64,000 nucleotides of DNA from a virus: positions 19,182 to 83,181 of the IMG/VR virus record IMGVR_UViG_3300031521_000040. One strand, given 5' to 3'. The translations under genes and the position numbers were made by a program. Under the pieces are notes generated by a model. The model saw only the letters and a list, made by a program, of their open reading frames with translations, was not told the DNA's origin and made no database searches. Shown piece by piece: positions 38,521 through 58,447 of this stretch (position 1 is its first letter; each line of letters starts with the position of its first letter).

Positions 38521-41175
38521 TTATTTCTTCTTCTTAGCTAACGATTCGTATACTTTGAATCTTTCATCAATCATCGAATCAAGCTTTTTGAATGCATCAG
38601 ATTTCTTGTTTTCATTTATGCTTGGTTTTTTGAGTCCAGCTTTTTCTTCAAGACGACCACGTACATATCTTCTAAGTTTTTGCTCACTCTCATTCAAGTT
38701 TTCTTCGAGTTCATTTGGTGTTGGTTGTCTATCGTCTCTGTTCATGTTTAGATCAGCTTTTATTTTAGGTAAAGCATCTTTTAGTTTTCTCAATGCAAAT
38801 CCATTAATTTCATGGATACCGCCATCTACAATATTATATGAATTACGATCAACAGAAATTGTTGCAATTCCATTTGTATTGTTTGCAGCTACATCAAATG
38901 CGATACTATCACCATTTTTACGGATATTAGTAAAACCTTGATTTTCCAAATACTGTTTCATTTCTGGATTAATGTATCTACCAAAAGTGGTACTTTGTGA
39001 TTGACCTATTTGAGCAGTTACTGGATCGTTATGATTGTTAGGACCGCTATTTGCATTATACTTATCGAGACCCTTCCAACTTGCATTATTTGCTAAACCA
39101 GTTGAAATTTCATTAATCATGTTCGTTAATGAACCCAATTGTTTTTTGGCTTCAGCTAATTTAATGTTTATCATCTTGTTTTGACCATCAACATTTACAT
39201 CAATACCAGTTGTTGGAGCACCTATTGGTTTAACAACACCTGCGCCTAATGATTGACCAGCGGGAGCAAATTTGATATCATCATTGAATTCTTCAGTATT
39301 TTTCATACCATCAGTATTTTCAACATTCTCCATGCTTTCGATGTTTTCGATATCGTCCTGTTTTTCATCATCTTCATCACCGTCTTCTTTTAACATTGTT
39401 TGTGTCTCAACGTTTGCGGGATCGATGTTTTCTCTTTGGATTTGACTACCAGCTTTAGTACCAGCTAAGCTAGCACCCTTACCTGCAGTCAATTGATTAG
39501 TAATACCTCTTAAAATGCCTTGTACGTTAACTGGTTCTTGACCAGCTTTAACTAATCTAGCATTTAAAGCAGCTACTTGTGCACCTAAATCAGATGCCAT
39601 TTTTTCTAATTTTTTTACTTCCCCACCAACTTCTCCTTGATGGTACGTTTGTTGAATACCTTGTGCAGCATCACCAACAGCATTTACACCAGCCTTAATA
39701 CCACCAGAAACTGCTTGTCCTGCTTTACTGATTCCAGAACCAACAGCATTTGCTGCGTTAGCACCTGCTTGCCCAACTCTTTGAGCGCCACCTGCAACTG
39801 CACTGCCAACTGCTTGACCAGCATTACTAATACCAGAGCCAATAGCATTTGCACCAGCTTTTAAGCCACCCATTGCTGCTTTTCCTAATGATTTCAAACC
39901 ACCAAACAATTCATTTAGTTTAGCTATATTTTCTTCATCAGTACTTTCATTCATTGAATCAACTTGTGGTTGAAGTTTTTCTGCATATTCTTCATGACCG
40001 TAATCATTTTTTAATGTGTTTAATAACTCAGGATTTATCACCTTTATAACTAAAGCAACACCTTCGAGATCACCATCATTCATGCCATCATTATGTGCAT
40101 TAGCGTAGCCACTGATAACGTTACCAACTTCTTCTTCACCACACTCCATTAATGATTCTGCGCTGTTATAACCTCTTGATTCAGCATATCTTGCGAAAGT
40201 ACCACATTCTGAACACTGTGCTTCTTCAACGCCTTGTCCTTCTTCGTGATCTTCAACATTCTGTCCTAAATCCTCGATATCTTCAGGGGGTACAATTTTC
40301 AATATTAAATTTGCAATATCTTTTCTTTCTTCAATTTCAAGTTCAGGAAGCTTATCTTTAAATGCTTGAATAAATGATTTAAGATATGATTGAGTTTGTG
40401 ATGGTTCTAAATCAGTTTTTCTGATTGTATTAGTAATTTTACCAATACCCTTTTCTAATTCTCTAATGCTTTCATCTTCACCTTCACCAGCAGCAGACAT
40501 TTCTTCGCTACCGTCACCAGCAGGCATTCCTTCTTCGCTACCATCACCAGCAGGCATTCCTTCGCCACCATCGGGTGCGGGCATTCCTTCTTCGCTATCT
40601 GGAGCAGGCATTCCTTCACCACCATCAGGAGCTGGCATTCCTTCGCCACCGTCACCAGCTGGCATTTCAGTGCCATCAGCTTGTGCAGGCTCTGCTTCAT
40701 TACCAGCAGCAAATTCAGCTGAATTAGTTTGATCTTCAGCAGCAGTTGCAGCATCCAAATCACTTAATTTATTTTCTGCGTTGTCGATTTCCTGACCTGC
40801 GATATCTTCATTAAGTCTTTTTTTGCTACCAGTTTTATTTTGTTTCAAAGAACCAGCTTCATTAATTGTATGCATTATCATATTTCTGTTTTTATCAGCT
40901 TCTGACAATGATTTATATTGAAAATTAGTGATGTTAGCTAGTCCACCAATATATGCAAAATCAGATACATCTGGATCAGATTTGATACCTGCTTTTTTAA
41001 TATAGTAGTTGTGATTTTCCTTAATGATACCGTAGGCAACACCATCAGCAGCTCTTTTGTAATCAATTAGATTGCCTAGTGTGCGATTTTTTGTTTCCTT
41101 AATCGATTTTTTATTAATGTCAGCTAAACCTCTTAATCTTTCCAAGTAAGCCTCTCTTGATGTTTGATTTTTCAT
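38521..41175 (-). CDS. Large acidic low-complexity protein, putative head/internal protein
   Basis: 884 aa; EGMPA repeats; Gly/Ala-rich segment; many L-x-E sites; late motif at 41220. Confidence 0.6.
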   Translation of the reverse strand: MKNQTSREAYLERLRGLADINKKSIKETKNRTLGNLIDYKRAADGVAYGIIKENHNYYIKKAGIKSDPDVSDFAYIGGLANITNFQYKSLSEADKNRNMIMHTINEAGSLKQNKTGSKKRLNEDIAGQEIDNAENKLSDLDAATAAEDQTNSAEFAAGNEAEPAQADGTEMPAGDGGEGMPAPDGGEGMPAPDSEEGMPAPDGGEGMPAGDGSEEGMPAGDGSEEMSAAGEGEDESIRELEKGIGKITNTIRKTDLEPSQTQSYLKSFIQAFKDKLPELEIEERKDIANLILKIVPPEDIEDLGQNVEDHEEGQGVEEAQCSECGTFARYAESRGYNSAESLMECGEEEVGNVISGYANAHNDGMNDGDLEGVALVIKVINPELLNTLKNDYGHEEYAEKLQPQVDSMNESTDEENIAKLNELFGGLKSLGKAAMGGLKAGANAIGSGISNAGQAVGSAVAGGAQRVGQAGANAANAVGSGISKAGQAVSGGIKAGVNAVGDAAQGIQQTYHQGEVGGEVKKLEKMASDLGAQVAALNARLVKAGQEPVNVQGILRGITNQLTAGKGASLAGTKAGSQIQRENIDPANVETQTMLKEDGDEDDEKQDDIENIESMENVENTDGMKNTEEFNDDIKFAPAGQSLGAGVVKPIGAPTTGIDVNVDGQNKMINIKLAEAKKQLGSLTNMINEISTGLANNASWKGLDKYNANSGPNNHNDPVTAQIGQSQSTTFGRYINPEMKQYLENQGFTNIRKNGDSIAFDVAANNTNGIATISVDRNSYNIVDGGIHEINGFALRKLKDALPKIKADLNMNRDDRQPTPNELEENLNESEQKLRRYVRGRLEEKAGLKKPSINENKKSDAFKKLDSMIDERFKVYESLAKKKK
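40480..40680 (-). repeat. Tandem 30-33 bp coding repeats (EGMPAPDGG / EGMPAGDGSE)
   Basis: About seven imperfect GGCATTCCTTC-containing units. Confidence 0.8.
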
Positions 41176-42435: not shown

Positions 42436-44445
42436 ATGAATTTAGAATGTTTAAACAACATAATTACAGATAACTTAGTAATTGACATTGATTTGACTAA
42501 TGTTAATTCATGGATTAATTTTAACAGCGATTTGACTGCATTTAGCCTTACAAAATGGAGCGAAGCTATTGTTGATAATATTAATTTAAATGATTTTGGG
42601 TTAACTGATTACGACAACGGAAAAACAGATATTATGTGGAGTGGAATCACGCTTACACCTAATAATGATTTATTTTCAGTATATAAAGTTGGATATAACA
42701 CAGTTATCAATCCAACAACAGGTCAAACAAGCGGATTTACATCAACAACACATTTTCTTCCAATTACAGGTATCACAAGTACAACTGGAAATTATTTTAA
42801 TTTAAATGGCGGATATGTGCAAGGATTTTTCAAACTACAAGATTATAATTATACGTTATTACCTTCCAGATATGGAAAAGGTATAACAATTGAAACAATA
42901 CTTAAATTATCGTCTAGTTCTCATGGTATATTTTATATGATGGGAGCACGTGCTGAAGATAAATATAATTCATATTTTAGTGGTGAAACTAAAACAGGCA
43001 GTACTACAACAGGCATAATAACTAGTGAGGGAAATTATTTGAACGCTTTGATTGGTGATATTGTTACTAAGAAGAGTTTCCAAAGACCTGAAGAAAATAC
43101 AGAAACCATTTATAGCGAAACAGCTCAAATCAATAATCTGAAAAATAACGTTATTGCATTTGAAATAACAACTGATAGAAGACTTGGTTACAAATACTTG
43201 AATAATAACGGACTTGTCGTAAGTGAAGAATCACCAATAAAGATAACCGCAACTGGTTTTACTATGATTGACTTAACGTTCACGCCATATGAAAACATAT
43301 ATGACTTAGGATTGTTAAAATGCATGAAACAAAGAATGGGTACATTAATGTTTTACGTAAATGGTCGTGCTGTTTGGATTATAAAGGATTTTCCTGAATT
43401 CTATTTTCATGGTTTCAGTAATCAAAAGGAAAAGGTATTGGGAATTCCATATTCAATAAGTTGGGGCGGTGGGTCTTTTGGATTGAAATATTCATGGCAT
43501 TATGATTATCAAAAATATAATATATATGATAATCAAGATAATACCTATATTACAACACATTTTTCTGTTCACGATAATCCCTTAGTATCAAATAATTTAC
43601 TATCTGGAATTTCATTAAGCGCAAATACTAATGCTTTTAATGCAACAGTAATGGAAATTGTATCGACAGGTGCAACAGGTAATACTTACTTTGTTAAATT
43701 TAATAATCCAATCTCTGTTCTGTCGAATAGGAATTATACATTTACATTATCACTTAATAATCACGGCTTATTTAAAAACACTAATAATATAGGTGAAGCT
43801 GTTAATAATAAATTATCTATTTTAGCATATAGTGATACTGTTGATGTTAGTTTTATGAATAGCATTGAATATGTATATCCTATTACAAGCCTACGTATGG
43901 AGGAAATACAGGCACTAGGGTTACATCCGTTTCAAGATAACCAAGAATATCAATATATTTATCCTAATGGCGTTATGTATTATGGTGAAACAGGTATCCC
44001 CGTTCTCGATGAATTCGGAAATGAAAATACATTTGGTTATGAAATGCCAATTAATCTAACTGGTAATACTTTATGGTATACAACTGGTGTAGATATGTGG
44101 AATGAACTTAAAGCAGTAATTAGAACATCTGATAATACAGGTCAGAGCTTTATTAATGTTGGCTTATTGATTGAAACAACTGATACTTTAAATCTTAATA
44201 GTCCGCTATTTATCAGCGGATTTACATATACTGCATCAGATATCTTAGTACATGATACTAGAAAAAATAATCTAACCATCGAAGAAAATTTCAACACATC
44301 GTTTATTGGTGGAATTCAAAAACTAAGAATATATAATAATGCGCTAACATCGCCAGAGGTGTTGCATAATGCGTTAATGGAAACCAAAGTTAATCCAAAT
44401 ATTATTGTAAGTAAGGGTGGAAGAATAATAACATATAGAGTATGA
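42436..44445 (+). CDS. Putative structural protein (LamG/concanavalin-like)
   Basis: LMFYVNG and FIGGIQKLRIYNNALT motifs; late motif at 42410. Confidence 0.55.
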   Translation: MNLECLNNIITDNLVIDIDLTNVNSWINFNSDLTAFSLTKWSEAIVDNINLNDFGLTDYDNGKTDIMWSGITLTPNNDLFSVYKVGYNTVINPTTGQTSGFTSTTHFLPITGITSTTGNYFNLNGGYVQGFFKLQDYNYTLLPSRYGKGITIETILKLSSSSHGIFYMMGARAEDKYNSYFSGETKTGSTTTGIITSEGNYLNALIGDIVTKKSFQRPEENTETIYSETAQINNLKNNVIAFEITTDRRLGYKYLNNNGLVVSEESPIKITATGFTMIDLTFTPYENIYDLGLLKCMKQRMGTLMFYVNGRAVWIIKDFPEFYFHGFSNQKEKVLGIPYSISWGGGSFGLKYSWHYDYQKYNIYDNQDNTYITTHFSVHDNPLVSNNLLSGISLSANTNAFNATVMEIVSTGATGNTYFVKFNNPISVLSNRNYTFTLSLNNHGLFKNTNNIGEAVNNKLSILAYSDTVDVSFMNSIEYVYPITSLRMEEIQALGLHPFQDNQEYQYIYPNGVMYYGETGIPVLDEFGNENTFGYEMPINLTGNTLWYTTGVDMWNELKAVIRTSDNTGQSFINVGLLIETTDTLNLNSPLFISGFTYTASDILVHDTRKNNLTIEENFNTSFIGGIQKLRIYNNALTSPEVLHNALMETKVNPNIIVSKGGRIITYRV

Positions 44446-44645
44446 GTGTATTAAATGAAATATTTGAAGGTTGGAAAAATCTGATTTTTGAAGATGATAA
44501 GGTTGAGGAAGAAGCCAAAAGAAGAATGGCTATTTGTGTTGGCTGTGATAAATTTACACGTGTAAAATCATGTGAACTATGCGGTTGTTATATGCCAGCA
44601 AAAGTACGATCTATGAAAAGCAAATGTGGTGATAATAAATGGTAA
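44442..44645 (+). CDS. Small Cys-rich protein
   Basis: RMAICVGC..CELCGCYM.AK......C. Confidence 0.6.
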   Translation: MSVLNEIFEGWKNLIFEDDKVEEEAKRRMAICVGCDKFTRVKSCELCGCYMPAKVRSMKSKCGDNKW

Positions 44646-45071
44646 TTAATTCTTACTGTGCGTTATAACATATGTATCTTCTAAAGCATATGCTTCAAAT
44701 TCATCAGTATTAAAATACATTTTACTATATGATGTAAGCTGTTTCGTGATATTGTTAATAATAAAATCAATTCTTCCTGTTAGACATATTGCAGAATGTA
44801 CATAATCACGTTTAGCTAATTTAATCTTTGTGTCTTTTGGAATGAAATGTAATACTGTAACATCATTAGTATTTTCTTCGTTGGGTACTCTTTTAAACCT
44901 AATCTGTTCGTTTTCACTACAATACCCCCAATTATTGAAATACCTCACTACAACTCCATCGCCAATTTCATGTATATATGGAAAATTTTGAAGCATTTCC
45001 GATTTTCTCTTATCGAGTAATTTATCTATTCTATCTATAATATATTTTTTTTCTTCGTTCATTATTAACAA
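44646..45071 (-). CDS. Hypothetical protein (cupin-like?)
   Basis: 141 aa; ALEDTYV C-terminus. Confidence 0.4.
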   Translation of the reverse strand: MLIMNEEKKYIIDRIDKLLDKRKSEMLQNFPYIHEIGDGVVVRYFNNWGYCSENEQIRFKRVPNEENTNDVTVLHFIPKDTKIKLAKRDYVHSAICLTGRIDFIINNITKQLTSYSKMYFNTDEFEAYALEDTYVITHSKN

Positions 45072-45664
45072 TATTGAGTAACAATGGAATTATTTAGGTT
45101 GTCGTGTATGTCCATAGTTGTACGATCAACAATTAGCTGCTCAACATATTCTTTTACAAATAATTTACGTATATTAATAGGTGCTCTTTCAAATGCAGTA
45201 AATTCAATCTCACTACCATCAGCAAATAATGATGCATTGATAGCCTGCCAATCGATATTACTAAACCAAGCTTCGTTTGCTGGCGGAGTATCATATGTGC
45301 CACTATCCGATGTGCCATCTGCACTAACTGAGACATTGTCACCGTGGAATCTTACATCGAATATAATTGGCTTTTCATTAGAATCATATAAGTATTCAAT
45401 ACTTATATTATACTCAATCGATAATTTAGTTACATCTTCTAATTCATTAGATTCCCAATTTCCGCCAATATGTGAATCATCAACATGTATAATTTTTATC
45501 TTAGCGTTTTTTGCTAAAAGTGAATCACATATAAATTGTTTTTGTAGGTCTTCGTTATTCAGTAATTCAATATTAGCCTCATCTTTATGAGATTCGTCAC
45601 TACCAAGAAAATCGAATTTTTCAATTTCTTCATTAACTAATATTATAAAATCTTTTTTTTTCAC
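45065..45664 (-). CDS. Hypothetical protein
   Basis: 199 aa; LVNEEI N-terminal motif; late motif at 45680. Confidence 0.55.
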   Translation of the reverse strand: MKKKDFIILVNEEIEKFDFLGSDESHKDEANIELLNNEDLQKQFICDSLLAKNAKIKIIHVDDSHIGGNWESNELEDVTKLSIEYNISIEYLYDSNEKPIIFDVRFHGDNVSVSADGTSDSGTYDTPPANEAWFSNIDWQAINASLFADGSEIEFTAFERAPINIRKLFVKEYVEQLIVDRTTMDIHDNLNNSIVTQYC

Positions 45665-45778
45665 AGGATAGATTTTATGATAAATACTATATTTTTCTAT
45701 AAAATTTTTAGAAATTCATGGGCAATATGTTTATTTATGCTTTTCACTTGATTTTAGTATTTATGAAAAATTGTATAT

Positions 45779-46192
45779 ATGAGCAAAGATTCGAAAAAAA
45801 TGCTGTTTGAAATGATGGAAAAAATAAATCCTAAGTTTAAACAACTCGAAATAGACGAAATAACAGGAGGATTACCGCCACAAGCTGGTGTAACACCACA
45901 AGCTACTACAACGCCACAGGCTTCACCTAATGCACAGCCAGTACAATCACCAGCCGTTACTCCACAACAGCCAGTAAATGCGCCTAGTGACGTTAGAACA
46001 GTTGCTAGAATGGCACAATCAGCTACTGCACTTCAAGGTGCTAATAAAAGGATTAATACAGCTACTGAATTTCCGCAAGCATTTAAAGATTGGTTTGCAT
46101 CATTGGGGTATAAAGCTGACAATCCTGCAATTTCGATAATGAAAGTAATGACTGAAGTTAAAAAGGCTATGACTGAAATGGGTTTTAAATAA
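45779..46192 (+). CDS. Putative internal head protein
   Basis: KKMLFEMMEKINPKF leader; Pro/Gln-rich linker; late motif at 45756. Confidence 0.55.
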   Translation: MSKDSKKMLFEMMEKINPKFKQLEIDEITGGLPPQAGVTPQATTTPQASPNAQPVQSPAVTPQQPVNAPSDVRTVARMAQSATALQGANKRINTATEFPQAFKDWFASLGYKADNPAISIMKVMTEVKKAMTEMGFK

Positions 46193-46198
46193 TATATT

Positions 46199-46810
46199 AT
46201 GGGAAATAAGCAAAGACTGTTTGAGATAATGGGAAAGGTAAATCCTGAATTTATTATTAAAGAAGACGTACCAGCAAGAGACCCTTCATGGATTGATGAT
46301 AATTCATTAAGTGTTGGTGAATTAAAGGAAGCAATCAATATTTATTCTCATTCGAAAAGTAAAGAAGAAGCATTAGCTAGAGCAAAAAATAGTGGCGTTG
46401 ATATACTAAAGTGTGTTGTAGGATTAATTGGCGTTGCAGGTTTCATTGCTGGAACAGCAGGAATAGGCGGTGCAGTGGTAGCAATTGCTGGTGGTGCTGC
46501 TGTAGGCGGTGCAGGTGCTGCATCTACATTGGATGATGTTCGCAAAGTTTTTAAGAAATTACTAGGTCCTAAAACCAAAACTGCACCTAAAACCCCAACA
46601 GGTTTTATGCAATTATTAAATATTGATCCAGAGGTTTCAATACTATTAGACGATAATATTGAAAACGAATTTATACAATTTGCAGTAAATAAACTCAATT
46701 CTATGCAAGATACCGAACCAGTTCCTAATTTTTTTAATGAATTAAGAGAATTTATTAAGGAAAAGTATGCACAAGTATATAACATAGGATACGGACAATC
46801 AGTACAATAG
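46199..46810 (+). CDS. Putative internal head protein with Gly/Ala hydrophobic segment
   Basis: KQRLFEIMGKVNPEFIIKE leader. Confidence 0.55.
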   Translation: MGNKQRLFEIMGKVNPEFIIKEDVPARDPSWIDDNSLSVGELKEAINIYSHSKSKEEALARAKNSGVDILKCVVGLIGVAGFIAGTAGIGGAVVAIAGGAAVGGAGAASTLDDVRKVFKKLLGPKTKTAPKTPTGFMQLLNIDPEVSILLDDNIENEFIQFAVNKLNSMQDTEPVPNFFNELREFIKEKYAQVYNIGYGQSVQ

Positions 46811-46839
46811 AAATTATTATAAATTATTTTTGAAAATAC

Positions 46840-46882
46840 TTTGCATTTCTTGTAACTTTTACTACCTTTGTTACGTATTTAG
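46840..46882 (+). promoter_or_regulatory. Nested promoters of tRNA array 1
   Basis: TTTG-N19-TACCTTTG; TGTAAC-N17-CGTA; GTATTTAG. Confidence 0.75.
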
Positions 46883-46927
46883 TTATGTCATAATTAATGT
46901 AATTATAATTTTTAAGAAAAAATCAAC

Positions 46928-47002
46928 ATGAAAAATTTAAACAACATACAACAACAACCGCAACAGCATCCACAAATGTCTGAACGGGGAAGTTATGTTT
47001 AA
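46928..47002 (+). CDS. Attenuator leader peptide 1 (MKNLNNIQQQPQQHPQMSERGSYV)
   Basis: 24-aa ORF with a Gln/Pro/His run upstream of the terminator and the Pro/His/Gln tRNAs. Confidence 0.8.
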   Translation: MKNLNNIQQQPQQHPQMSERGSYV

Positions 47003-47029
47003 ATTTATCATGAGTTTAAAGCATTATAG

Positions 47030-47060
47030 AAACCCTGTTCGAAAGTTCAGGGTTTTTTTT
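47030..47060 (+). terminator. Attenuator terminator 1
   Basis: AAACCCTG...CAGGGTTTTTTTT; its 5' arm can alternatively pair with GAACGGGG (46982-46989). Confidence 0.8.
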
Positions 47061-47085
47061 ATGTATATATGTTCTTTGAAAAGTA

Positions 47086-47320
47086 TTGAAGAGGTGACTG
47101 AATGTTAAAGTTAATCAGGTGAAGGAGAGCCTTATGCTGGTAAAGTCAGTGTCTGCAACAAGACACTGGTGACTGCACCGAGGGGTGGGGTGAAATACCC
47201 ACACTGACCTAAAACGAGGCGTAGCACAAAGTATGGTTATTGTTCGGTGTACAACGATAATAATTTGAAATCGACCAACGCCTATCCTCACTCTGTGGGT
47301 TAAAGTCCCACCCTCTTCAA
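47086..47320 (+). ncRNA. Large tRNA-like RNA (about 235 nt)
   Basis: TTGAAGAGG/CCTCTTCAA terminal stem, D-like arm, T-like arm GTGGG-TTAAAGT-CCCAC; about 170 nt structured insert. Confidence 0.6.
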
Positions 47321-47325
47321 AATAT

Positions 47326-47415
47326 CTAGGCGTAGGTCTGTAGTTGGTAGCAGTCCTGTCTTGGAAGCAGGTAGGGTAAAACCTCTCGTCAGTTCGAATC
47401 TGACCGCTTAGACCA
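47326..47415 (+). tRNA. tRNA-Pro(TGG), long variable arm
   Basis: CCTGT-CTTGGAA-GCAGG anticodon arm, GTTCGAATC, encoded CCA. Confidence 0.85.
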
Positions 47416-47423
47416 ATTAATAT

Positions 47424-47495
47424 AGAGTAGTAGCGCAGTGGTAGCGTACATGGTTTGGGACCATGTGGTCGTGGGTTCGAGTCCCACTTACTCTA
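47424..47495 (+). tRNA. tRNA-Pro(TGG)
   Basis: CATGG-TTTGGGA-CCATG; canonical cloverleaf. Confidence 0.92.
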
Positions 47496-47506
47496 CAAGA
47501 TCACAT

Positions 47507-47578
47507 GGGACGATTGGTGTATCGGTAGCACGGAAGTTTGTGAAGCTTTTAGAGTGGGTTCAAACCCCACATCGCCCC
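47507..47578 (+). tRNA. tRNA-His(GTG)
   Basis: GAAGT-TTGTGAA-GCTTT; G-1/C73. Confidence 0.88.
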
Positions 47579-47587
47579 CTAAATTAT

Positions 47588-47659
47588 TGTTGTATAATAC
47601 AATGGTTAGTATAACTGACTTTGAATCAGTTTATTGTGGTTCGAATCCACATACAACAA
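47588..47659 (+). tRNA. tRNA-Gln(TTG)
   Basis: ACTGA-CTTTGAA-TCAGT. Confidence 0.9.
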
Positions 47660-47729
47660 CAAAATATTGTTCGATTTTTTATAAAATGATTCGAACTTTC
47701 ATATGTTTTCAGTATTTATGATAAAACAT

Positions 47730-48299
47730 ATGAAAGAAGAAATATTAAAGTTAAGATCAGAAGGTAAAAAATATTATGAAATACAAAAAGCGTTAAATTG
47801 TTCTAAATCAATTGTTTCGTATTATTGTGGCGTTGCTCAAAAAGACAAATCTCGGAAAAGACAAGCTGAAAATAGAATGAAATGCAACGAAACAACCATT
47901 ATATGTAAAACAACTAATTTCAAATATTGTAGAATTGATAAGTCGAAAAAACTAAGAATTTCATCAACTAGTTTTCAAAAAAGACCTAATAAAATTTATG
48001 AAAAAGATATTACATTAACATTTGATTGGAAGGATGTAATCGATAAATTTGGTGAGGATACTTTTTGTTATTTAAGTGGTGAAAAAATAAACCTTATTAA
48101 TGATAAAAATTATAATCTTGATCATATTGTACCAAAAACCAGAGGTGGCGAAAATAATTTAGAAAATTTAGGAATTCTACATGAAACAGTTAATAAAATG
48201 AAAGGAGCATTGTTGAATGAAGAATTATTTGAGTGGTGTATAAAAATATTGAAGCATAATGGATATGATGTAGTAAAGAATAAAATAATAAACGATTAA
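47730..48299 (+). CDS. HNH endonuclease with N-terminal HTH
   Basis: CYLSG...LDHIVPKTRGGENNLENL...VNKMK; AGTATTTAT at 47711. Confidence 0.85.
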   Translation: MKEEILKLRSEGKKYYEIQKALNCSKSIVSYYCGVAQKDKSRKRQAENRMKCNETTIICKTTNFKYCRIDKSKKLRISSTSFQKRPNKIYEKDITLTFDWKDVIDKFGEDTFCYLSGEKINLINDKNYNLDHIVPKTRGGENNLENLGILHETVNKMKGALLNEELFEWCIKILKHNGYDVVKNKIIND

Positions 48300-48309
48300 A
48301 TATAACAGC

Positions 48310-49128
48310 ATGTATTACATAGTCCAGAAGAACGTCTTTAGAGAAGAAAATTACGATAATTTAATATTGGCTTTAGATCGATTAAAACTATCATACGAAA
48401 TAGTTGATGTACTACCATTTATTGAAACATTCGAGTTTCATTGTAAAGACAAAAATGTGTTTCCTTTTGGGTCAACGAAAATGGCTAGACTGTCTAAGCT
48501 ATATGGCTGGACACCCGGTTCTCAATTGAATGATAATCATGATTATCAGGTGTATAAAAACTTTTATGGTGATAATTTATTGAATTACGATTCACTTATT
48601 TATAAATTCGATGATGAATTTTTTGTTGACAAACCCTTTTTCGCCAGACCAACTAAAGATAGTAAAGCGTTTACTGGTAAGGTATTCGACATGGAAACAT
48701 GGAGAAAATTTAGAAACACTGCCTTAATCAATATACTTGATAAAGATACTGAAATTCAGGTATCATTAGTTAAAGTTATTCAAAAAGAAATAAGATTCTG
48801 GATAGTAAAAGGAAAAATTGCAACTGCAAGTCAATATAAACTAGGAACTAGAGTAGTGCTTAGCGACACCGTAGATCAGCCAGCATATGATTTTTGTAAT
48901 AAAATGATTCAATTGTTTCAATTAAACGATGCATTTGTAATGGATTTGTGTTTGGTTAATGATGAATATAAGATCGTTGAGTGTGGGTGCATTAATTGTG
49001 CTGGTTTCTATCGAGCTGATCTACAGAAATTATTGGTTAAACTAGAAGAAGCATTCTCAAACGATTATTTTGATCGTTGTTATCCGTCATTTTGTAATCC
49101 CATGGATCAAAACTTCTTGCGTTTATAA
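48310..49128 (+). CDS. ATP-grasp protein (R2K-like)
   Basis: FARPTKDSKAFTGKV, EIRFWIVKG, FVMDL, KIVECGCINCAGFY. Confidence 0.75.
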   Translation: MYYIVQKNVFREENYDNLILALDRLKLSYEIVDVLPFIETFEFHCKDKNVFPFGSTKMARLSKLYGWTPGSQLNDNHDYQVYKNFYGDNLLNYDSLIYKFDDEFFVDKPFFARPTKDSKAFTGKVFDMETWRKFRNTALINILDKDTEIQVSLVKVIQKEIRFWIVKGKIATASQYKLGTRVVLSDTVDQPAYDFCNKMIQLFQLNDAFVMDLCLVNDEYKIVECGCINCAGFYRADLQKLLVKLEEAFSNDYFDRCYPSFCNPMDQNFLRL

Positions 49129-49159
49129 AATTTAATAATTACTTTTGCAATAAAACGAT

Positions 49160-49405
49160 ATGAGAGCAGTTGTACCCTGTAATATCGACAATTCTGAAGA
49201 TATTGTCGATACAATAAAATACAATACTATAGGCATTTATGAAGATACAATATCTTCATTCAAAGACTATGTACTACCTGAAAATTCATTAGAACCAACA
49301 ACTACCACAATCTTTTTTCATAAAAGAGAAGATGAACATGGGTTTCTTCAACAAGTTACTATAACAATTAAAACAGAAGTCTTATTAGGATTTCAAAAAT
49401 ATTAA
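49160..49405 (+). CDS. Hypothetical protein
   Basis: 81 aa; TACTTTTG promoter element at 49140. Confidence 0.5.
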   Translation: MRAVVPCNIDNSEDIVDTIKYNTIGIYEDTISSFKDYVLPENSLEPTTTTIFFHKREDEHGFLQQVTITIKTEVLLGFQKY

Positions 49406-49408
49406 TAT

Positions 49409-49873
49409 ATGCAGTACAATCTATATTTAGATGACTTCAGAATGCCATTGGATTCGTTCAATTATACTAACAATAAAATATATAATATTGTTAATTGGAA
49501 GGTTGTGCGTAATTATGATGAATTCGTTGAAGCGATTCTAACTAATGGATTGCCTGAACGAATTTCCTATGATCATGACTTATCATATGAAGATATCAAT
49601 AAAGAAACTGGCTTTACTGAAAAAACTGGCTTGGATTGTGCTAGGTGGCTTATAAACTACTGTATGGATAATAATTTAGATGTGCCAGTTGAAATTTATA
49701 TTCATAGTATGAATACCGTTGGTGCATTAAATATTAAATCATTATTTACTACCTATTATAAGGTATACCCAACCGATAACGACTTTTATATTAATGATGT
49801 CTATATTAAAAACGGATTCTATTCTTATAATTATAGTCGTGGCTTTAATATGTGGAATGAAGATATTTATTAA
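49409..49873 (+). CDS. Cyclic-phosphate-processing receiver-domain protein
   Basis: LYLDDFR, VRNYDEF, ISYDHDL, TGLDCARWL, IHSMNTVG. Confidence 0.8.
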   Translation: MQYNLYLDDFRMPLDSFNYTNNKIYNIVNWKVVRNYDEFVEAILTNGLPERISYDHDLSYEDINKETGFTEKTGLDCARWLINYCMDNNLDVPVEIYIHSMNTVGALNIKSLFTTYYKVYPTDNDFYINDVYIKNGFYSYNYSRGFNMWNEDIY

Positions 49874-49921
49874 GCATGCGTTTTTAAATAAAATAAGTAT
49901 TTATGAAAAAATATATATTTT

Positions 49922-50344
49922 ATGCAAAAAATAGGTAAAGACAGACTTTTCGAAGTCCTAAGTAGGTTAGATAAAACATTCAAACTCATAAATGAAGAAC
50001 AACTACATCATTATAATGATGCTAACGAAACATTTGCACCCGATCAAAATGGCAATGAAGTTACAGATACTGTAAGTCCTGCTACAAGTACAGCACCACT
50101 TAACGAAGATCAATCAGAATCACCTATTCATAAATATGTTTACTTTGCATTTAACTATCCTAATGATTTTATTGAGCAAACATGGGCTGATGATGAAAAT
50201 TTAATGACCCATCTTAAATCTAAATTCCAAGGATATTATAATAAGTATGGTTCAGCTTCAGTAATGAATTATTTTTATACTGAACTTGATGTTCAAAATC
50301 AAAGGAAATTGGATGATTGGATTATTAATAATTATAATGGCTAA
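49922..50344 (+). CDS. Putative internal head protein
   Basis: KDRLFEVLSRLDKTFKLINEE leader; late motif at 49896. Confidence 0.55.
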   Translation: MQKIGKDRLFEVLSRLDKTFKLINEEQLHHYNDANETFAPDQNGNEVTDTVSPATSTAPLNEDQSESPIHKYVYFAFNYPNDFIEQTWADDENLMTHLKSKFQGYYNKYGSASVMNYFYTELDVQNQRKLDDWIINNYNG

Positions 50345-50350
50345 TATGTC

Positions 50351-50560
50351 ATGAATGAACGCAGGGAATATATCAAAGTAGGTAGGAAAGCTTCTAAACG
50401 TGGCGATAGAGCTATAGCTTCTTCTTGTAAATATGATAGCTATTGGACTCAACCTTGTAATAAATATTGGAAAAGACAGGCAAATAAAAAGGTTAGATGC
50501 TCAAATATCATCAATAATATGGGATATAAAAGGATTTATGATAGCTTTTACTGGTCTTAA
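50351..50560 (+). CDS. Small basic protein
   Basis: 69 aa; KYWKRQANKKVR. Confidence 0.5.
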   Translation: MNERREYIKVGRKASKRGDRAIASSCKYDSYWTQPCNKYWKRQANKKVRCSNIINNMGYKRIYDSFYWS

Positions 50561-50613
50561 AACAATTGATATTTAATGAGTTAAAAATTATTATTAATTA
50601 TTTTTAAAAATAC

Positions 50614-50656
50614 TTTGCATTTCTTGTAACATTTTATACCTTTGTTACGTATTTAG
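50614..50656 (+). promoter_or_regulatory. Nested promoters of tRNA array 2
   Basis: Near-identical to 46840-46882. Confidence 0.75.
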
Positions 50657-50724
50657 ATATACAAACAACAATAAGTAATTATTGAAATTTATTAAAAACA
50701 ACGAATATTAAAAACAAAAACGAA

Positions 50725-50814
50725 ATGAAAAATTTACTCGAAACTTTATTAGTAGCAATGGTAGCCGACCTATTATGGTTGGATGCAGAGGATATGTTAT
50801 GTGATGTCGGGTAA
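50725..50814 (+). CDS. Attenuator leader peptide 2 (MKNLLETLLVAMVADLLWLDAEDMLCDVG)
   Basis: 29 aa; 21 residues are L/D/E/V/A/W, matching the downstream tRNAs. Confidence 0.8.
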   Translation: MKNLLETLLVAMVADLLWLDAEDMLCDVG

Positions 50815-50850
50815 AGGAAATAATAATATTGTTCACCTTTCTTTTTATAA

Positions 50851-50884
50851 AAGACCCGACTATTAAAACCAGTCGGGTTTTTTT
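50851..50884 (+). terminator. Attenuator terminator 2
   Basis: AAGACCCGACT...AGTCGGGTTTTTTT; ACCCGAC can alternatively pair with GTCGGGT (50806-50812). Confidence 0.85.
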
Positions 50885-50928
50885 GTTTTAGGTGAATAAG
50901 TTCTTTGACATGCTGGAAAAAATAAAAT

Positions 50929-51008
50929 GGTCTTAGGGTCTGCTGGGCGTGGACGACACCCTGTCACGGTGTTCAATCAGGTCGATTCGAATTCGACTAG
51001 GACCGCCA
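50929..51008 (+). tRNA. tRNA-Asp(GTC)
   Basis: ACACC-CTGTCAC-GGTGT, G73, encoded CCA. Confidence 0.85.
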
Positions 51009-51015
51009 TTAATAC

Positions 51016-51088
51016 AATGCTATAGTTCAATTGGCAGAATAACTGACTGTCTATCAGTGGGTTGCGGGTTCGAGTCCCGTTAGCATTG
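51016..51088 (+). tRNA. tRNA-Asp(GTC)
   Basis: ACTGA-CTGTCTA-TCAGT. Confidence 0.9.
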
Positions 51089-51148
51089 CACGGTTTACTG
51101 GAAGGTAAACTAATCAGAGTTATATAAAACGTGATAAATTAACTCTGA

Positions 51149-51218
51149 AGTCTCGTAGTTTAGAGTGGATATGAATGCCCTGAAGGGGTGGTTGCTGGTT
51201 CAACGCCAGTCGGGACTG
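51149..51218 (+). tRNA. Degenerate tRNA, anticodon undetermined
   Basis: Acceptor, D and T arms present; anticodon arm shortened (GCCC-TGAAG-GGGT). Confidence 0.5.
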
Positions 51219-51228
51219 CTTTTAAAAT

Positions 51229-51303
51229 GTTGCCGTTGATAAATTGGCGAAATCACCTGACTTTCAATCAGGTCATATGTGGGTTCAAGTCCCATCGGCA
51301 ATA
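51229..51303 (+). tRNA. tRNA-Glu(TTC)
   Basis: CCTGA-CTTTCAA-TCAGG. Confidence 0.88.
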
Positions 51304-51309
51304 CAATAT

Positions 51310-51382
51310 GTCGCTATATGCTAATTGGCTAGGCAATAACACCTTCACTGTTATGGTGTGAGTTCGATCCTCACTAGCGATA
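51310..51382 (+). tRNA. tRNA-Glu(TTC)
   Basis: TAACA-CCTTCAC-TGTTA. Confidence 0.8.
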
Positions 51383-51403
51383 CAATTTTTAAATAAAAAC
51401 GTT

Positions 51404-51541
51404 ATGAAACCATTAAAAAGAAAATTAACCTCAACTGAATTTAGTAAAAAGCAAGAGAACGCAGCTAATTACGGAAAATTCATTAAAACAACTTTAGTTG
51501 AAAGAGGTAAACAGAGAAACATTTTCAAAATTAAGAACTGA
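51404..51541 (+). CDS. Small basic ORF (45 aa) inside the tRNA array
   Basis: MKPLKRKLTSTEFSKKQENAANYGKFIKTTLVERGKQRNIFKIKN. Confidence 0.4.
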   Translation: MKPLKRKLTSTEFSKKQENAANYGKFIKTTLVERGKQRNIFKIKN

Positions 51542-51599
51542 TAACATATAAGCGGTTAATAGCCTGTGAGACATTAACGGCTAATATATTATTACTTAT

Positions 51600-51674
51600 G
51601 TTCCCTTAGCTTAGCTGGTTTAAAGCACTTCTCCTACAAAGAAGATACCGTTGGTTCAAATCCAACAGGGAACA
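51600..51674 (+). tRNA. tRNA-Val(TAC)
   Basis: CTTCT-CCTACAA-AGAAG. Confidence 0.88.
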
Positions 51675-51741
51675 CAAAACATAACAATAAGTGTTTTCGC
51701 TTATATTCATATTTAATAAGCGAAAACACTTGTAAATATAT

Positions 51742-51823
51742 CCTTTTGTGGTGGAATTGGTATACACGGCAGCCCAAGAAACTGTTGTCGAAGGACATGC
51801 GAGTTCAAATCTCGCCAAGAGGA
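51742..51823 (+). tRNA. tRNA-Leu (AAG by register; class II)
   Basis: Leu-type D arm GTGGAATTGGTATACAC, GCAGC-CCAAGAA-ACTGT, long variable arm. Confidence 0.75.
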
Positions 51824-51989
51824 CTGAGATGTAATATGGTAATAAAGACGATGGCTGAGTGAGGCTATAGCGTGTCCAAAGCGCCAATAGACCACCAGAG
51901 GTTAACTCCCGATGCAATATCTGGCAACCTCACTCCCATATTACGGAAAGATGAATTATCGTCTGGAGATTCCAGACGGAAAATAATAT

Positions 51990-52064
51990 GCTGGTGTAGC
52001 CGAATGGTAAATAGGCAACTGACTTAGGATCAGAAATTTGCGAGTTCGAGTCTCGCCACCAGTA
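51990..52064 (+). tRNA. tRNA-Leu(TAG), short variable arm
   Basis: CTGA-CTTAGGA-TCAG. Confidence 0.82.
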
Positions 52065-52069
52065 CATTT

Positions 52070-52158
52070 GGGGATGTGATGAAATTGGTAGCACATGACA
52101 AGCTTAAACCTTGTTGCGAAATAATAGTAGCGTGTCAGTTCGAGTCTGACCTTCCCTA
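52070..52158 (+). tRNA. tRNA-Leu(TAA)
   Basis: ACAAG-CTTAAAC-CTTGT, long variable arm. Confidence 0.88.
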
Positions 52159-52169
52159 CTGAAATACAT

Positions 52170-52241
52170 GGGGTGTGAAGTGTAATTGGCTGCACAAAAC
52201 ATTTGCAATGTTTTAGAGGGGTTCAAGTCCCACACGCTCCA
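52170..52241 (+). tRNA. tRNA-Ala(TGC)
   Basis: AAACA-TTTGCAA-TGTTT; G3:U70 pair. Confidence 0.85.
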
Positions 52242-52305
52242 CAAGAAATTTTGAGTTCATTCAATCTTTTCTCCACAATTAAAGTATTTATGATAAAATA
52301 TTATT

Positions 52306-53097
52306 ATGAATATATGTAAAAATTGTGGAATTGAAATCGAATCACATCGTAAATATTGTTCATTGAGATGTAGAAATATATATGTTAATGAAAATCTTAG
52401 AAACTATAGTAAAAACGGTGATTCTATTAGCAAAAAATTTGTTGATGAATATAATTCACATCCAAAAAAATGTAAAGCATGTGATAAAATTATACCATAT
52501 GCGCTAAGGGAATGGGTTTTTTGTTCTAAAGAATGTAAAAAAACTGGATTAATTAAGTGGAATGAAAATCGAAAAGGCGAAAAGCGTAGTTTTAGTAAAG
52601 AAGGAATTGATAATATTATTATAGCAAGACGATTAAGATTAGATACTAGTTTTGAGGATTACATGTCTAATCCGAAACTTTGTAAAGAATGTGGTGAAAA
52701 ATTGCCGTTTGACCATAAAGCACGAATTTTCTGTAATATTAAATGTAAACGAATTTATGATAGTAAAAACATATCCGAATATCAAATTTATTATAAAAAT
52801 TGTCAGTTTAAATTTAATTTATCTAACTATCCAGAAGAATTTAATTTCGATATGATAAATGAATATGGTTGGTATAAAGCAAAAAATCATGGTGATAATT
52901 TAAATGGTATTAGTCGTGACCATATGATTTCAGTAAAATATGGTTATGAAAATAATATTAGCTCAGATATTATTTCTCACCCTGCTAATTGCAAACTAAT
53001 GCCACATAGTAGTAATTCAAAGAAACATAGTAACTGTTCGCTTAGCTTAGAAAACTTGCTACTAAAAATCAATGAATGGAATTTAAAATATTATTAG
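52306..53097 (+). CDS. HNH-like endonuclease with Zn-finger repeats, inserted in the tRNA array
   Basis: Three CxxC...(Y/F)C..C modules; SRDHMIS...HPANC.LM....NSKK; late motif at 52283. Confidence 0.75.
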   Translation: MNICKNCGIEIESHRKYCSLRCRNIYVNENLRNYSKNGDSISKKFVDEYNSHPKKCKACDKIIPYALREWVFCSKECKKTGLIKWNENRKGEKRSFSKEGIDNIIIARRLRLDTSFEDYMSNPKLCKECGEKLPFDHKARIFCNIKCKRIYDSKNISEYQIYYKNCQFKFNLSNYPEEFNFDMINEYGWYKAKNHGDNLNGISRDHMISVKYGYENNISSDIISHPANCKLMPHSSNSKKHSNCSLSLENLLLKINEWNLKYY

Positions 53098-53135
53098 AAA
53101 TAAATAAAATCGTCTGGAAATTCCAGACAAAACAT

Positions 53136-53218
53136 ACGTAAGTTGCCGAGTGGTTAAAGGCGGTGGTCTCCAAAACTACTAGAGAAATCTTTCGTGGGTT
53201 CGAATCCTACCTTACGTG
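53136..53218 (+). tRNA. tRNA-Trp(CCA), long variable arm
   Basis: GTGGT-CTCCAAA-ACTAC; G73. Confidence 0.85.
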
Positions 53219-53240
53219 CTTGATAATCAACAAGTTATAT

Positions 53241-53314
53241 AGCCCTATATGCCAACTGGTAGAGTGAGGTGTTTCAAACGCATCGTAGTGAGAGTTCGAA
53301 TCTCTCTAGGGCTA
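53241..53314 (+). tRNA. tRNA-Leu(CAA), short variable arm
   Basis: GGTGT-TTCAAAC-GCATC. Confidence 0.75.
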
Positions 53315-53403
53315 CATTTAGTCATCGGGAATCTCCAGATGAAATTAATTTAATATTTTTGTAACATTTCGCTATAGTTATACGTATAATAATTAAAATA
53401 TTC

Positions 53404-54171
53404 TTGCTTATTATTATCATTATCATTACTTTTAACAAAAATTATCACATGTATATTATTTCAAATAAGAAAAAAGATTATTATGATGGCGTTGCTGGTA
53501 CAGTAGGCATTGATAAAACCATTGTATATAATCGTCAGCAAATTGAAATAGGTGAAAAGGACTTACCTTCTTTATTTAAAGTTGATATACATAATCATAA
53601 CAATTCTTCATTCACCAAATTGGATGCTTATCACATTAAAGATGAATATTCTAAAGATTTTTTTAATTATTCATGTGATATTATTGGATTTTGTGGTAAG
53701 ATTTATTTTTGTTGGAATTTCTATTATAAGAAATATAATAGGTTTACGCATGCTGATGAAACAGTTACTCATATTACATATGATATTACTGAAGCTAAGG
53801 ATATTTTAACAGATAAAAACTATTATGGTAATCTTGCTGACAATATCAACGATGTTCTAAATTATGATGCAATGCATTTGTTTAGAGAATTTAAAACACC
53901 TGTATTTGTTTATTCAGATGACCCACATGATTCGGTTTTGCTTGATAGGCGCAGATATAGATGGGCAAAAAAGATCATATTGAATCCAATATTAAATGAT
54001 TTCAACTTCTATTCTGAGTTTGATTCATTTCAAGCATTTCAAGAAATTCAGATGTTTATCGGTGGCGTACTAGGTTGTAATGAAAAAGATATTATTGAAG
54101 TTGCTGATAAATATAAGATTGCGCAGCACGGATTTGATAAATTTAGTTTTAGAAAGGATAAGGAAAAATGA
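53404..54171 (+). CDS. Conserved phage hypothetical protein (likely start near 53449)
   Basis: KKDYYDG...FQAFQEIQMFIGGVL...KIAQHGFDK.SFR. Confidence 0.6.
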   Translation: MLIIIIIITFNKNYHMYIISNKKKDYYDGVAGTVGIDKTIVYNRQQIEIGEKDLPSLFKVDIHNHNNSSFTKLDAYHIKDEYSKDFFNYSCDIIGFCGKIYFCWNFYYKKYNRFTHADETVTHITYDITEAKDILTDKNYYGNLADNINDVLNYDAMHLFREFKTPVFVYSDDPHDSVLLDRRRYRWAKKIILNPILNDFNFYSEFDSFQAFQEIQMFIGGVLGCNEKDIIEVADKYKIAQHGFDKFSFRKDKEK

Positions 54172-54440
54172 AACCTGTTATAAACAAAATATTTTTCATA
54201 CCTGCTAAGTTCGTGGAAGTTCGTGGCGATAAAGTAGTTCTCGATTGCTTGCTTACAGCAAATCATCAGGGTATTGAAAGAAGAATTTTCGATAAAATAT
54301 TGTTTGACGATATTGATAATCCAAATCTAATTATGATTGCAATGATATCAGGCTTTATGTGTTTTCAGATTAATGTAATGTCTGCCGATGAATATATGTA
54401 TTTGTATAAGAAAAAATGGTTTTGGCTGTTAAAAAATTAA
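54168..54440 (+). CDS. Hypothetical protein
   Basis: Operonic ORF. Confidence 0.5.
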   Translation: MKPVINKIFFIPAKFVEVRGDKVVLDCLLTANHQGIERRIFDKILFDDIDNPNLIMIAMISGFMCFQINVMSADEYMYLYKKKWFWLLKN

Positions 54441-54913
54441 TCATGGAACAATTAGATAAGAGAAAAATTAAATTTAGGATAGTTGAACACCAATATGATA
54501 ATGGTAGTAAAAGTTTCACACCTGAATGGTATTGCTATATTAAACAAGCATGTAATTTTGGATGGAATCCTTGCTATGGTTCTAATTTAACTGCGGAAAC
54601 CGATACGCATGAACAGGCATTAAAAAATATCATTTTTTTTGCTGGTTGTATTGGATTATTCGTATCCAAGCCTAAAGAAATTATACATGAAATAAACATA
54701 GGTAATTTATTTGATATCAATAAAGACTGTAGAAAAACACCTGATATTGAAAAAACAGATGAAATACTTGCTGAGCTTAAATTAAGAAAAAGAAGAAATC
54801 TCATGAATCGAGCACTAAACAATAACGCTTCAGAATTCGCATATAGTGAAATTGAAATCACGGTTTTGAATGATTTGATTAAGTACGTTCAAGATTTAAT
54901 AAATAGCAAATAA
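54416..54913 (+). CDS. Hypothetical protein
   Basis: Operonic ORF. Confidence 0.5.
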   Translation: MVLAVKKLIMEQLDKRKIKFRIVEHQYDNGSKSFTPEWYCYIKQACNFGWNPCYGSNLTAETDTHEQALKNIIFFAGCIGLFVSKPKEIIHEINIGNLFDINKDCRKTPDIEKTDEILAELKLRKRRNLMNRALNNNASEFAYSEIEITVLNDLIKYVQDLINSK

Positions 54914-55076
54914 TGAAAAAAACTGAAAAGATATTACTGGCGCTTAAGGCAGACAGAAGATTAAATGATACTCATTGTACTTTAAACAACTGTTCACCTT
55001 CACAATATATGCAAGGTAGTAATAAAATATTGGATGATTACATTATATATGTAGAAAATTTAATAAATAAGAAATA

Positions 55077-55364: not shown

Positions 55365-55368
55365 TATT

Positions 55369-57018: not shown

Positions 57019-57027
57019 ACTAATATT

Positions 57028-57785: not shown

Positions 57786-57790
57786 AATAT

Positions 57791-58364: not shown

Positions 58365-58372
58365 TATAATAT

Positions 58373-58443: not shown

Positions 58444-58447
58444 CAAA

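Follow-up and report, generated by a model that had tools for sequence, protein, structure and literature searches.

The 64,000-nucleotide stretch of DNA analysed here, in the following termed the window, comprises bases 19182-83181 of the 83-kb viral contig IMGVR_UViG_3300031521_000040 from IMG/VR, whose completeness is estimated by CheckV at about 27%. Its plus strand contains a short open reading frame (ORF) that is followed by an intrinsic terminator and an array of four tRNA genes, an arrangement referred to as cassette 1. With a probability of roughly 0.8, we consider this arrangement to act as a ribosome-mediated leader-peptide transcription attenuator that gates a tRNA operon of the phage, a view founded on the parts found in the sequence, their mutual complementarity, their conservation and the match of codons between leader and array. 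Cassette 1 encompasses the following elements:

46840-46870, plus strand: predicted promoter of the Bacteroidota type, with TTTG at -33 (46840-46843), TACCTTTG at -7 (46863-46870) and a spacer of 19 nt
46927-46943, plus strand: 5' strand of the predicted helix P1, containing the start codon and codons 2-5 and pairing with 46996-47012
46928-47002, plus strand: leader ORF of 24 codons and a TAA, with its ATG at 46928 and its stop codon at 47000-47002
46949-46975, plus strand: regulatory codons 8-16, CAA CAA CAA CCG CAA CAG CAT CCA CAA, encoding QQQPQQHPQ
46981-46989, plus strand: predicted antiterminator strand TGAACGGGG in codons 19-21, 11-19 nt upstream of the stop codon
46996-47012, plus strand: 3' strand of the predicted helix P1, spanning the stop codon
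47030-47060, plus strand: intrinsic terminator with the stem AAACCCTG / CAGGGTTT followed by eight T (-11.6 kcal/mol)
47326-47415, plus strand: tRNA-Pro(UGG) of 90 nt with a long variable arm, C1-G72 and A73 (ARAGORN; 27.8 bits in Rfam at a cut-off of 29 bits)
47424-47496, plus strand: canonical tRNA-Pro(UGG) (ARAGORN; Rfam 68.1 bits)
47508-47579, plus strand: tRNA-His(GUG) (ARAGORN; Rfam 52.9 bits)
47588-47660, plus strand: tRNA-Gln(UUG) (ARAGORN; Rfam 68.5 bits)

The promoter was assigned with the consensus of the Bacteroidota sigma-A promoter motif, and transcription of cassette 1 would start downstream of it. It is part of a block of about 75 nt that, in an alignment of both cassettes, is found nearly identical upstream of a second cassette of the window, including a 21-mer (46836-46856) that is exactly repeated at 50610-50630 where the expected number of matches is 0. 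The leader ORF is located between this promoter and the tRNA genes and is preceded by an A-rich, unstructured region that does not contain a Shine-Dalgarno sequence. The original prediction had described its codons 8-16 as nine consecutive Gln, Pro and His codons upstream of two Pro(TGG), one His(GTG) and one Gln(TTG) tRNA, and we find this run at 46949-46975 and all four tRNAs among the genes called by ARAGORN. The run contains six Gln, two Pro and one His codon, all of which can be read by the downstream Gln(UUG), Pro(UGG) and His(GUG) species. Codons read by the array make up 9 of 23 positions in the leader, all of them consecutive, compared to 6% in long ORFs of these phages (P = 6e-6), and thus form a cluster of regulatory codons for the amino acids that are presumably sensed.

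Relatives of the locus were collected by use of the R2K-clade ATP-grasp gene at 48310-49128 as handle, which provided 8 viral contigs and 80 metagenome loci, several of the latter originating from contigs of 330-430 kb. A pipeline requiring a terminator, a tRNA at most 700 nt downstream and a short ORF ending just before the terminator detected orthologous and non-orthologous cassettes in many of these related loci and one in the published genome LR756500. Codon statistics refer to 26 curated cassettes from related huge-phage contigs belonging to 10 leader families, surveys of antiterminator complements and boxA-like motifs to 28 cassettes and a swap control to 14 family representatives, whereas the orthologues of the Pro/His/Gln leader comprise six sequences, the window and five relatives (L005, L004, L140, L142 and L143).

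In each of the 26 leaders, codons read by its own array are enriched, with individual P values between 1e-2 and 1.5e-7. The mean matched fraction amounts to 0.49 in frame, while shifting the frame lowers it to 0.14 or 0.15 (Wilcoxon P = 4e-6) and, as the enrichment is confined to the frame of the ORF, base composition is not its cause. The own array provides the best match for 9 of the 10 family representatives, the observed fit was not reached once in 200,000 random re-pairings of leaders and arrays, and a test with seven families gave 1 of 5040. At least one cognate codon for 157 of the 170 distinct anticodon species is contained in their own leaders, while about 90 would be expected for random peptides of equal lengths, and the missing species are mostly C34 isoacceptors with a U34 partner that reads the same codon. 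The composition of the leader tracks that of the array in families as different as Pro/His/Gln; Asp/Glu/Val/Leu/Ala/Trp; Lys/Tyr; Ile/Thr/Ser; Cys/Ile/Ser/Phe/Gly/Asn/Thr/Arg; Trp/Glu/Asp/Lys/Arg/Gly/Thr/Leu/Tyr; Gln/Pro/Phe/Asn/Val/Ile/Ser/His; Glu/Met/Asn/Leu/Asp/Thr; Lys/Phe/Trp/Ser/His and Ser/Thr/Ile/His, with arrays combining up to 13 amino acids.

Among the six Pro/His/Gln orthologues the ORF is of equal length and the position of the stop codon identical in 6/6, with a single indel of 3 nt being in frame. The sites that vary are distributed over codon positions 1, 2 and 3 in numbers of 6, 8 and 13. Pro codon 11 appears as CCG, CCC or CCT, the Gln codons alternate between CAA and CAG, and nonsynonymous changes within the run mostly remain among Gln, Pro and His.

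The RNA contains elements that would permit such a leader to control transcription. The intrinsic terminator between the leader ORF and the tRNA genes consists of a stem formed by 47030-47037 and 47048-47055 and a T-run at 47053-47060. Within the leader, GAACGGGG (46982-46989) is complementary to CCCTGTTC (47033-47040) in the 5' arm of the terminator, and pairing of 46981-46989 with 47033-47041 is computationally predicted to be mutually exclusive with the terminator, as would be expected for an antiterminator. The predicted stability of the duplex of -12.6 kcal/mol compares to -5.4 +/- 1.9 kcal/mol for shuffled upstream sequence (z = -3.7). It had been proposed that this strand resides just 3' of the Gln/Pro/His run and within the footprint of a ribosome at the stop codon, and both its coordinates and its pairing were confirmed. 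In the six orthologues, the eight antiterminator pairs are kept in 46 of 48 cells. Position 47037 covaries with both of its alternative partners, with 46985, 47037 and 47048 being occupied by C, G and C in the window and by T, A and T in the five orthologues, and 47036 changes jointly with 47049 while retaining its pair with 46986, which is compensatory with respect to the same five sequences. Beyond this family, a complement of 7-11 bp in the 3' part of the leader ORF was detected in about 22 of 28 cassettes whose terminator sequences are unrelated, the strand ending anywhere from about 33 nt ahead of the stop codon to a few nt beyond it. In the swap control, leaders paired with their own terminator arm with a mean energy of -10.4 kcal/mol, compared to -6.1 kcal/mol for swapped combinations, and none of 100,000 permutations was as good. 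In the minimum free energy fold (-37.5 kcal/mol, z = -4.5) the two ends of the leader ORF are joined in helix P1, a candidate anti-antiterminator that may hold the untranslated leader in the terminating fold.

The consequences of ribosome position were approximated in a footprint model of the transcript up to the terminator loop, in which 30 nt around the A site were forced to be unpaired. For cassette 1, the model predicts 8 antiterminator base pairs when codons 2-14 are in the A site, and 0 when codons 16-21 are or when the ribosome is absent. In the ribosome-free fold, the antiterminator strand is held by P1 and by pairing with the codon run.

Based on these features, we propose the following course of events. 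Host RNA polymerase would start at the Bacteroidota-type promoter and a ribosome would load on the 24-codon leader. If Gln, Pro and His codons are decoded fast, the ribosome would cover the antiterminator at 46981-46989 and reside at the stop codon while the terminator is made, in which case the hairpin at 47030-47055 would form and transcription would end at the T-run. A shortage of usable tRNA for Gln, Pro or His would stall the ribosome in QQQPQQHPQ and leave the antiterminator free to capture the emerging 5' arm of the terminator. The polymerase would then pass a boxA-like site and transcribe a structured RNA of 240 nt, the four tRNAs and perhaps also the genes that follow them. Without a ribosome, termination would be favoured by P1 and by the base pairs that the codon run forms with the antiterminator strand. 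The outcome would be a negative feedback, in which a set of tRNAs is made only while its codons are read slowly. The quantity that is sensed is probably the supply of usable tRNA, and the physiological signal could be a mismatch in codon usage, host shut-off or the cleavage of tRNAs by host defences. We infer from the sequence that the leader ORF is translated and that transcription and translation are coupled in the host, and likewise the direction of the switch and the sensed signal. As an additional layer, the promoter block common to cassettes 1 and 2 may confer control at the level of the promoter. The original proposal that the Gln/Pro/His leader controls the tRNA array following it is supported by the codon match, by the alternative pairing and by the recurrence of the arrangement in relatives.

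The window contains two further cassettes of this kind:

50610-50885: cassette 2, with the same promoter block as cassette 1
50725-50814: leader of cassette 2, with 29 codons rich in Leu, Asp, Val, Ala, Glu and Trp
50929-53315: array of cassette 2, with two Asp, two Glu, Val, four Leu anticodons, Ala and Trp
63412-63648 (also delimited as 63490-63648): cassette 3, with a leader of 30 codons that is rich in Lys, Tyr, Thr and Gly, the predicted antiterminator GAATCGGG and a terminator

In cassette 2, 19 of 28 leader codons are read by its own array compared to a background of 27% (P = 6e-6), and its Leu codons TTA, CTA, CTC and TTG match the four Leu anticodons of the array. Its predicted antiterminator GTCGGGT overlaps with the stop codon. 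An ORF of 263 residues (52306-53097), for which Pfam provided sub-threshold matches only, interrupts the array. The array of cassette 3 (63846-64000) is cut by the end of the contig, and the anticodon loop of its first tRNA-like gene (63846-63933) contains an insertion of 12 nt. Its orthologues on the minus strands of two related loci (L012, 6238-6669; L014, 3151-3697) precede only Lys, Tyr and Lys tRNAs. The footprint model of cassette 3 was uninformative, with 8 pairs irrespective of the position of the ribosome; its terminator arm probably finds a second partner. In the 462-kb genome LR756500.1 (L219), a leader rich in His, Glu, Ile, Val, Leu and Trp at 8901-9037 precedes His, Glu, Val, Trp and Leu tRNAs, and a second, Asn-rich leader at 40390-40514 precedes a tRNA-Asn. 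In the complete relative of 327 kb, four leader cassettes cover about 33 of 42 tRNA genes.

All three leaders of the window end in TAA. A tRNA with the anticodon CUA, of the amber suppressor type, was encountered on the minus strands of L012 (18953-19024) and L013 (17486-17560) and in L146 (19685), L147 (20108) and L219 (17166), with no such tRNA being apparent in the 83-kb contig that includes the window. These tRNAs hint at a reassignment of TAG in part of the clade.

In cassette 1, the tRNAs do not follow directly 3' of the terminator, since a boxA-like motif and the structured RNA intervene, and the array is succeeded by protein-coding genes on the same strand:

47071-47081, plus strand: boxA-like motif GTTCTTTGAAA, a match to GTTCWTTRAMA
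47088-47325, plus strand: structured RNA of about 240 nt (fold of -77.3 kcal/mol, z = -3.9), the predicted first product of the array
47703-48299, plus strand: HNH endonuclease (Pfam)
48310-49128, plus strand: R2K-clade ATP-grasp protein (Pfam)
within 47703-49873, plus strand: ORF of 81 residues, between the ATP-grasp and the cREC_REC genes
49409-49873, plus strand: protein with a cREC_REC (cyclic-phosphate-processing receiver) domain (Pfam)

The boxA of rrn operons is the basis of the function proposed for the motif. Its consensus matches four sites in the window, three of which are located just 3' of the three leader terminators (47071-47081, 50900-50910 and 63645-63655). The same motif is found within 50 nt of the terminator in about 17 of 28 related cassettes, compared to an overall density of 0.09 per kb, and the copy in L166 reads TGCTCTTTGACA. 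In cassettes that do not contain it, the first tRNA is located about 15 nt or less from the terminator. By analogy, an antitermination complex may be recruited at this site and accompany the polymerase across the long untranslated array, including its embedded genes.

The 240-nt RNA is closed by a stem of 7-8 bp that resembles a tRNA acceptor and is placed beside a hairpin resembling a T-arm. It is conserved in the 327-kb relative (L005, 8688-8925), and a divergent copy resides in the tRNA array of L178 (1836-2080), where 15 of 62 predicted pairs are kept via changes on both sides. The RNA showed no match to an Rfam family at E <= 10, and ARAGORN, with searches for introns and transfer-messenger RNA (tmRNA) switched on, detected neither a tRNA nor a tmRNA in 47088-47325. 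Assignments as tmRNA, RNase P RNA, signal recognition particle RNA, group I intron or intron-containing tRNA could not be supported. A weak match to the ATPC motif (23-28 bits at a cut-off of 45 bits), the sole one found in Rfam for the leader and the 240-nt RNA, was taken as noise.

The variable arm of the 90-nt Pro tRNA is similar to those of class II tRNAs, and the canonical Pro(UGG) gene adjoins it. L005 (9018-9109) likewise contains a long-arm Pro(UGG), as do L146 and L147 after their terminators. For several other isoacceptors of these arrays too, a normal copy is accompanied by an over-long one, such as the 80-nt Asp tRNA at 50929-51008. No terminator hairpin was seen in the sequence 3' of the tRNA-Gln, and the same-strand genes in 47703-49873 are possibly co-transcribed with the array. 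In relatives, the ATP-grasp gene is found within the Pro/His/Gln array adjoining Gln tRNAs, which would probably place it under the same attenuator.

Several observations weigh against attenuation by a translating ribosome in the form proposed above. The covariation within the Pro/His/Gln family derives from a single evolutionary event that separates the window from its five orthologues and thus constitutes supporting evidence but not proof, and in the more distant orthologues of L146 and L147 the search for an antiterminator complement gave no convincing candidate (z of about 0 to +1). Support for P1 is modest, with 75% of cells being paired in the six orthologues and 4 of 16 pairs changed on both sides. 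In the footprint model, 6 pairs of the terminator arm with another upstream segment are found when the stop codon or one of the three sense codons before it occupies the A site. The untranslated RNA of most other cassettes folds into the antiterminator, equivalent to a default ON state, so that the core of the arrangement would be that a ribosome past the regulatory codons prevents the antiterminator and one stalled upstream allows it. In some cassettes (cassette 3 and L171) the antiterminator strand is located 25-33 nt before the stop codon, where masking by the terminating ribosome would be insufficient; for these, we infer that the long-range helix is blocked either by a ribosome inside the would-be loop or by a trailing ribosome. 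Two related arrays, in L007 (2500-8760) and L218 (LR756501.1), are devoid of a leader or a terminator by the criteria of our scan, and control would thus either not be universal in the clade or exist in a form that the scan misses. Finally, the coupling of transcription and translation in Bacteroidota hosts is an assumption of the model.

The explanation that comes closest to the proposed attenuator retains the same hardware but assigns a different signal, with the leader, like those of classical attenuators, reporting starvation for Gln, Pro or His via uncharged tRNA instead of how abundant or intact the tRNAs are. As a stalled ribosome does not distinguish a missing from an uncharged tRNA, the structural evidence suits a sensor of amino-acid supply equally well. 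The leaders, however, follow the content of the arrays down to single anticodons, as in the case of the four Leu codon types and four Leu anticodons of cassette 2, and the arrays mix up to 13 amino acids that have no metabolic relation. Moreover, additional tRNA would not relieve a shortage of amino acids, and the output would thus be mismatched to the input. On these grounds, we regard amino-acid supply as an unlikely signal.

Less probable still, and in our view very improbable, is a terminator acting as a constitutive or factor-controlled barrier that is passed by aid of an antiterminator protein of the phage or of boxA and Nus factors, with the ORF being incidental or encoding a functional micropeptide. 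Protein antiterminators are common in large phages, and the conservation of the boxA-like motif beside the terminators would fit to such a barrier. The site, however, is located downstream of the terminator and thus cannot act on it. Similarly, although an N-terminal MKNL and C-terminal residues of the pattern E-W-G..Y are conserved among orthologues, as would be expected for a micropeptide, the C-terminal residues coincide with the antiterminator strand and P1, so that their conservation is explained by RNA pairing. Neither the family-by-family codon match in the frame of the ORF nor the presence of a complement of each unrelated terminator within its own ORF would be accounted for by a barrier of this kind. 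Finally, a chance combination of a short ORF, of which those with 20-30 codons are plentiful in AT-rich DNA, with the terminator of the upstream gene in an AT-rich intergenic region deserves hardly any credence, since a promoter separates the upstream gene from the ORF, the run has a P of about 6e-6, the frame-specific signal recurs in 26 cassettes and permutation and frame controls refute such an origin.

The proposed attenuator most closely resembles the multivalent leaders of enterobacteria such as the thr leader, which responds to Thr and Ile, and the ilvGMEDA leader, which responds to Ile, Leu and Val, with hisL, trpL, leuL and pheL being further members of this group. Shared features are a short leader with a cluster of regulatory codons, a mutually exclusive terminator and antiterminator between which the position of the ribosome decides, and the sensing of several amino acids. 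In contrast to these systems, the phage cassettes would not regulate enzymes that synthesize or charge the sensed amino acid but tRNA genes and, in cassette 1, the 240-nt RNA. They further differ in that they are phage-borne, in that up to 13 amino acids are covered by a single leader, and in that most untranslated cassette RNAs are modelled to default to the antiterminator. No leader family of Rfam, including His_leader, Leu_leader, Thr_leader, Trp_leader and others, matched at E <= 1 in the region 44000-60000. A second parallel is found in the pheST attenuator of E. coli, whose leader pheM controls phenylalanyl-tRNA synthetase and reads the level of charged tRNA. Here too, a leader peptide acts on a component of the translation apparatus instead of a biosynthetic pathway, but pheST is cellular, controls a synthetase and is concerned with one amino acid, whereas the output of the phage cassettes would be the tRNA itself and thus a direct feedback on decoding speed.

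T-box riboswitches likewise attenuate transcription in response to the state of a specific tRNA with an output related to translation, but they bind this tRNA directly via a specifier codon in the specifier loop of Stem I and via the conserved T-box sequence, which pairs with the 3' end of the tRNA, and do not require a ribosome. No T-box was matched in Rfam at E <= 1 or E <= 10, and the frame-specific signal implies translation, unlike in a T-box. With respect to boxA and Nus factors of rrn operons, the cassettes share the presence of a boxA-like motif (GTTCTTTGAAA in cassette 1, TGCTCTTTGACA in L166) at the start of a long untranslated unit, but the motif here is placed 3' of a regulated terminator, and the likeness to the rrn boxA, which is bound by NusB-NusE, is one of motif resemblance. 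The published system that we found nearest in its biology is that of Anabaena sp. PCC 7120, where a long tRNA array, the trn operon, is silent until it is turned on under translational stress and is linked to the tRNA-repair gene rtcB (PMC8421152). As in the case proposed for the phage, an extra array would stay silent until translation is impaired, but the Anabaena response is general and not codon-specific, and its control is exerted at the promoter, where the ribbon-helix-helix repressor TrcR binds direct repeats (PMC8421152, PMC10272220). Leaders, attenuation or terminators are not mentioned in the former study (PMC8421152), nor are leaders and attenuation in a description of huge phages (PMC7162821), and full-text searches of the literature on phages yielded no description of tRNA genes, operons or arrays being controlled by a leader peptide. 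While the anatomy of a classical attenuator is thus already known, tRNA genes as its regulated output would, judged from these sequences, be a new feature.

The source of the window and its probable host can be narrowed by comparison. Five DNA runs, each containing at least 60% of the sampled words of the window, carry the label peat metagenome, and none of the runs found to contain the sequence is of RNA. The GenBank records that are nearest by the neighbouring ATP-grasp protein belong to the uncultured huge phages LR756501/LR756503 (735 kb) and LR756500 (462 kb), and a clade of huge phages in the 735/462-kb class was assigned to Bacteroidetes hosts (Al-Shayeb et al., 2020; PMC7162821). The promoters of the window, with TTTG, a spacer of about 19 nt and TAnnTTTG, are consistent with this host range. 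Searches with exact words were of varying use. A 19-mer of the 240-nt RNA recovered the 327-kb relative twice, in addition to a GC-rich chance match (L136). A 20-mer of the shared promoter retrieved from viral contigs a single unrelated 4-kb contig without tRNAs, a chance match, and a 15-mer of the cassette 2 leader gave more than 113 chance matches, 0 of which contained a cassette. A scan for sigma-70 promoters combined with simple terminators returned counts equal to those of shuffled sequences, as the promoter type was wrong and the limit on loop size misses these terminators.

The tRNAs of phages are usually regarded as constitutive add-ons that adapt to codon usage or replace cleaved host tRNAs. 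The cassettes suggest instead that tRNAs are synthesized on demand, with the ribosome itself gauging the need codon by codon. It is tempting, though tentative, to view them as an inducible counter-defence, in which leaders would gauge the tRNA pool of the host by codon and fire upon the action of anticodon nucleases, of other tRNA-depleting defences or of host shut-off, so that substitute tRNAs, among them atypical long-arm forms that might evade cleavage, would be made together with the R2K ATP-grasp, cREC_REC and HNH proteins and the 240-nt RNA. If attenuation by the leader peptide is correct, a classical mechanism of amino-acid metabolism would be extended to the supply of tRNA, and the composition of a leader would predict from sequence alone which tRNAs a phage expects to be scarce. 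The cassettes would then be compact modules that sense how fast the codons of up to 13 amino acids are decoded and that could be reused as reporters, and they would offer a handle on the question of why huge phages carry dozens of tRNA genes.

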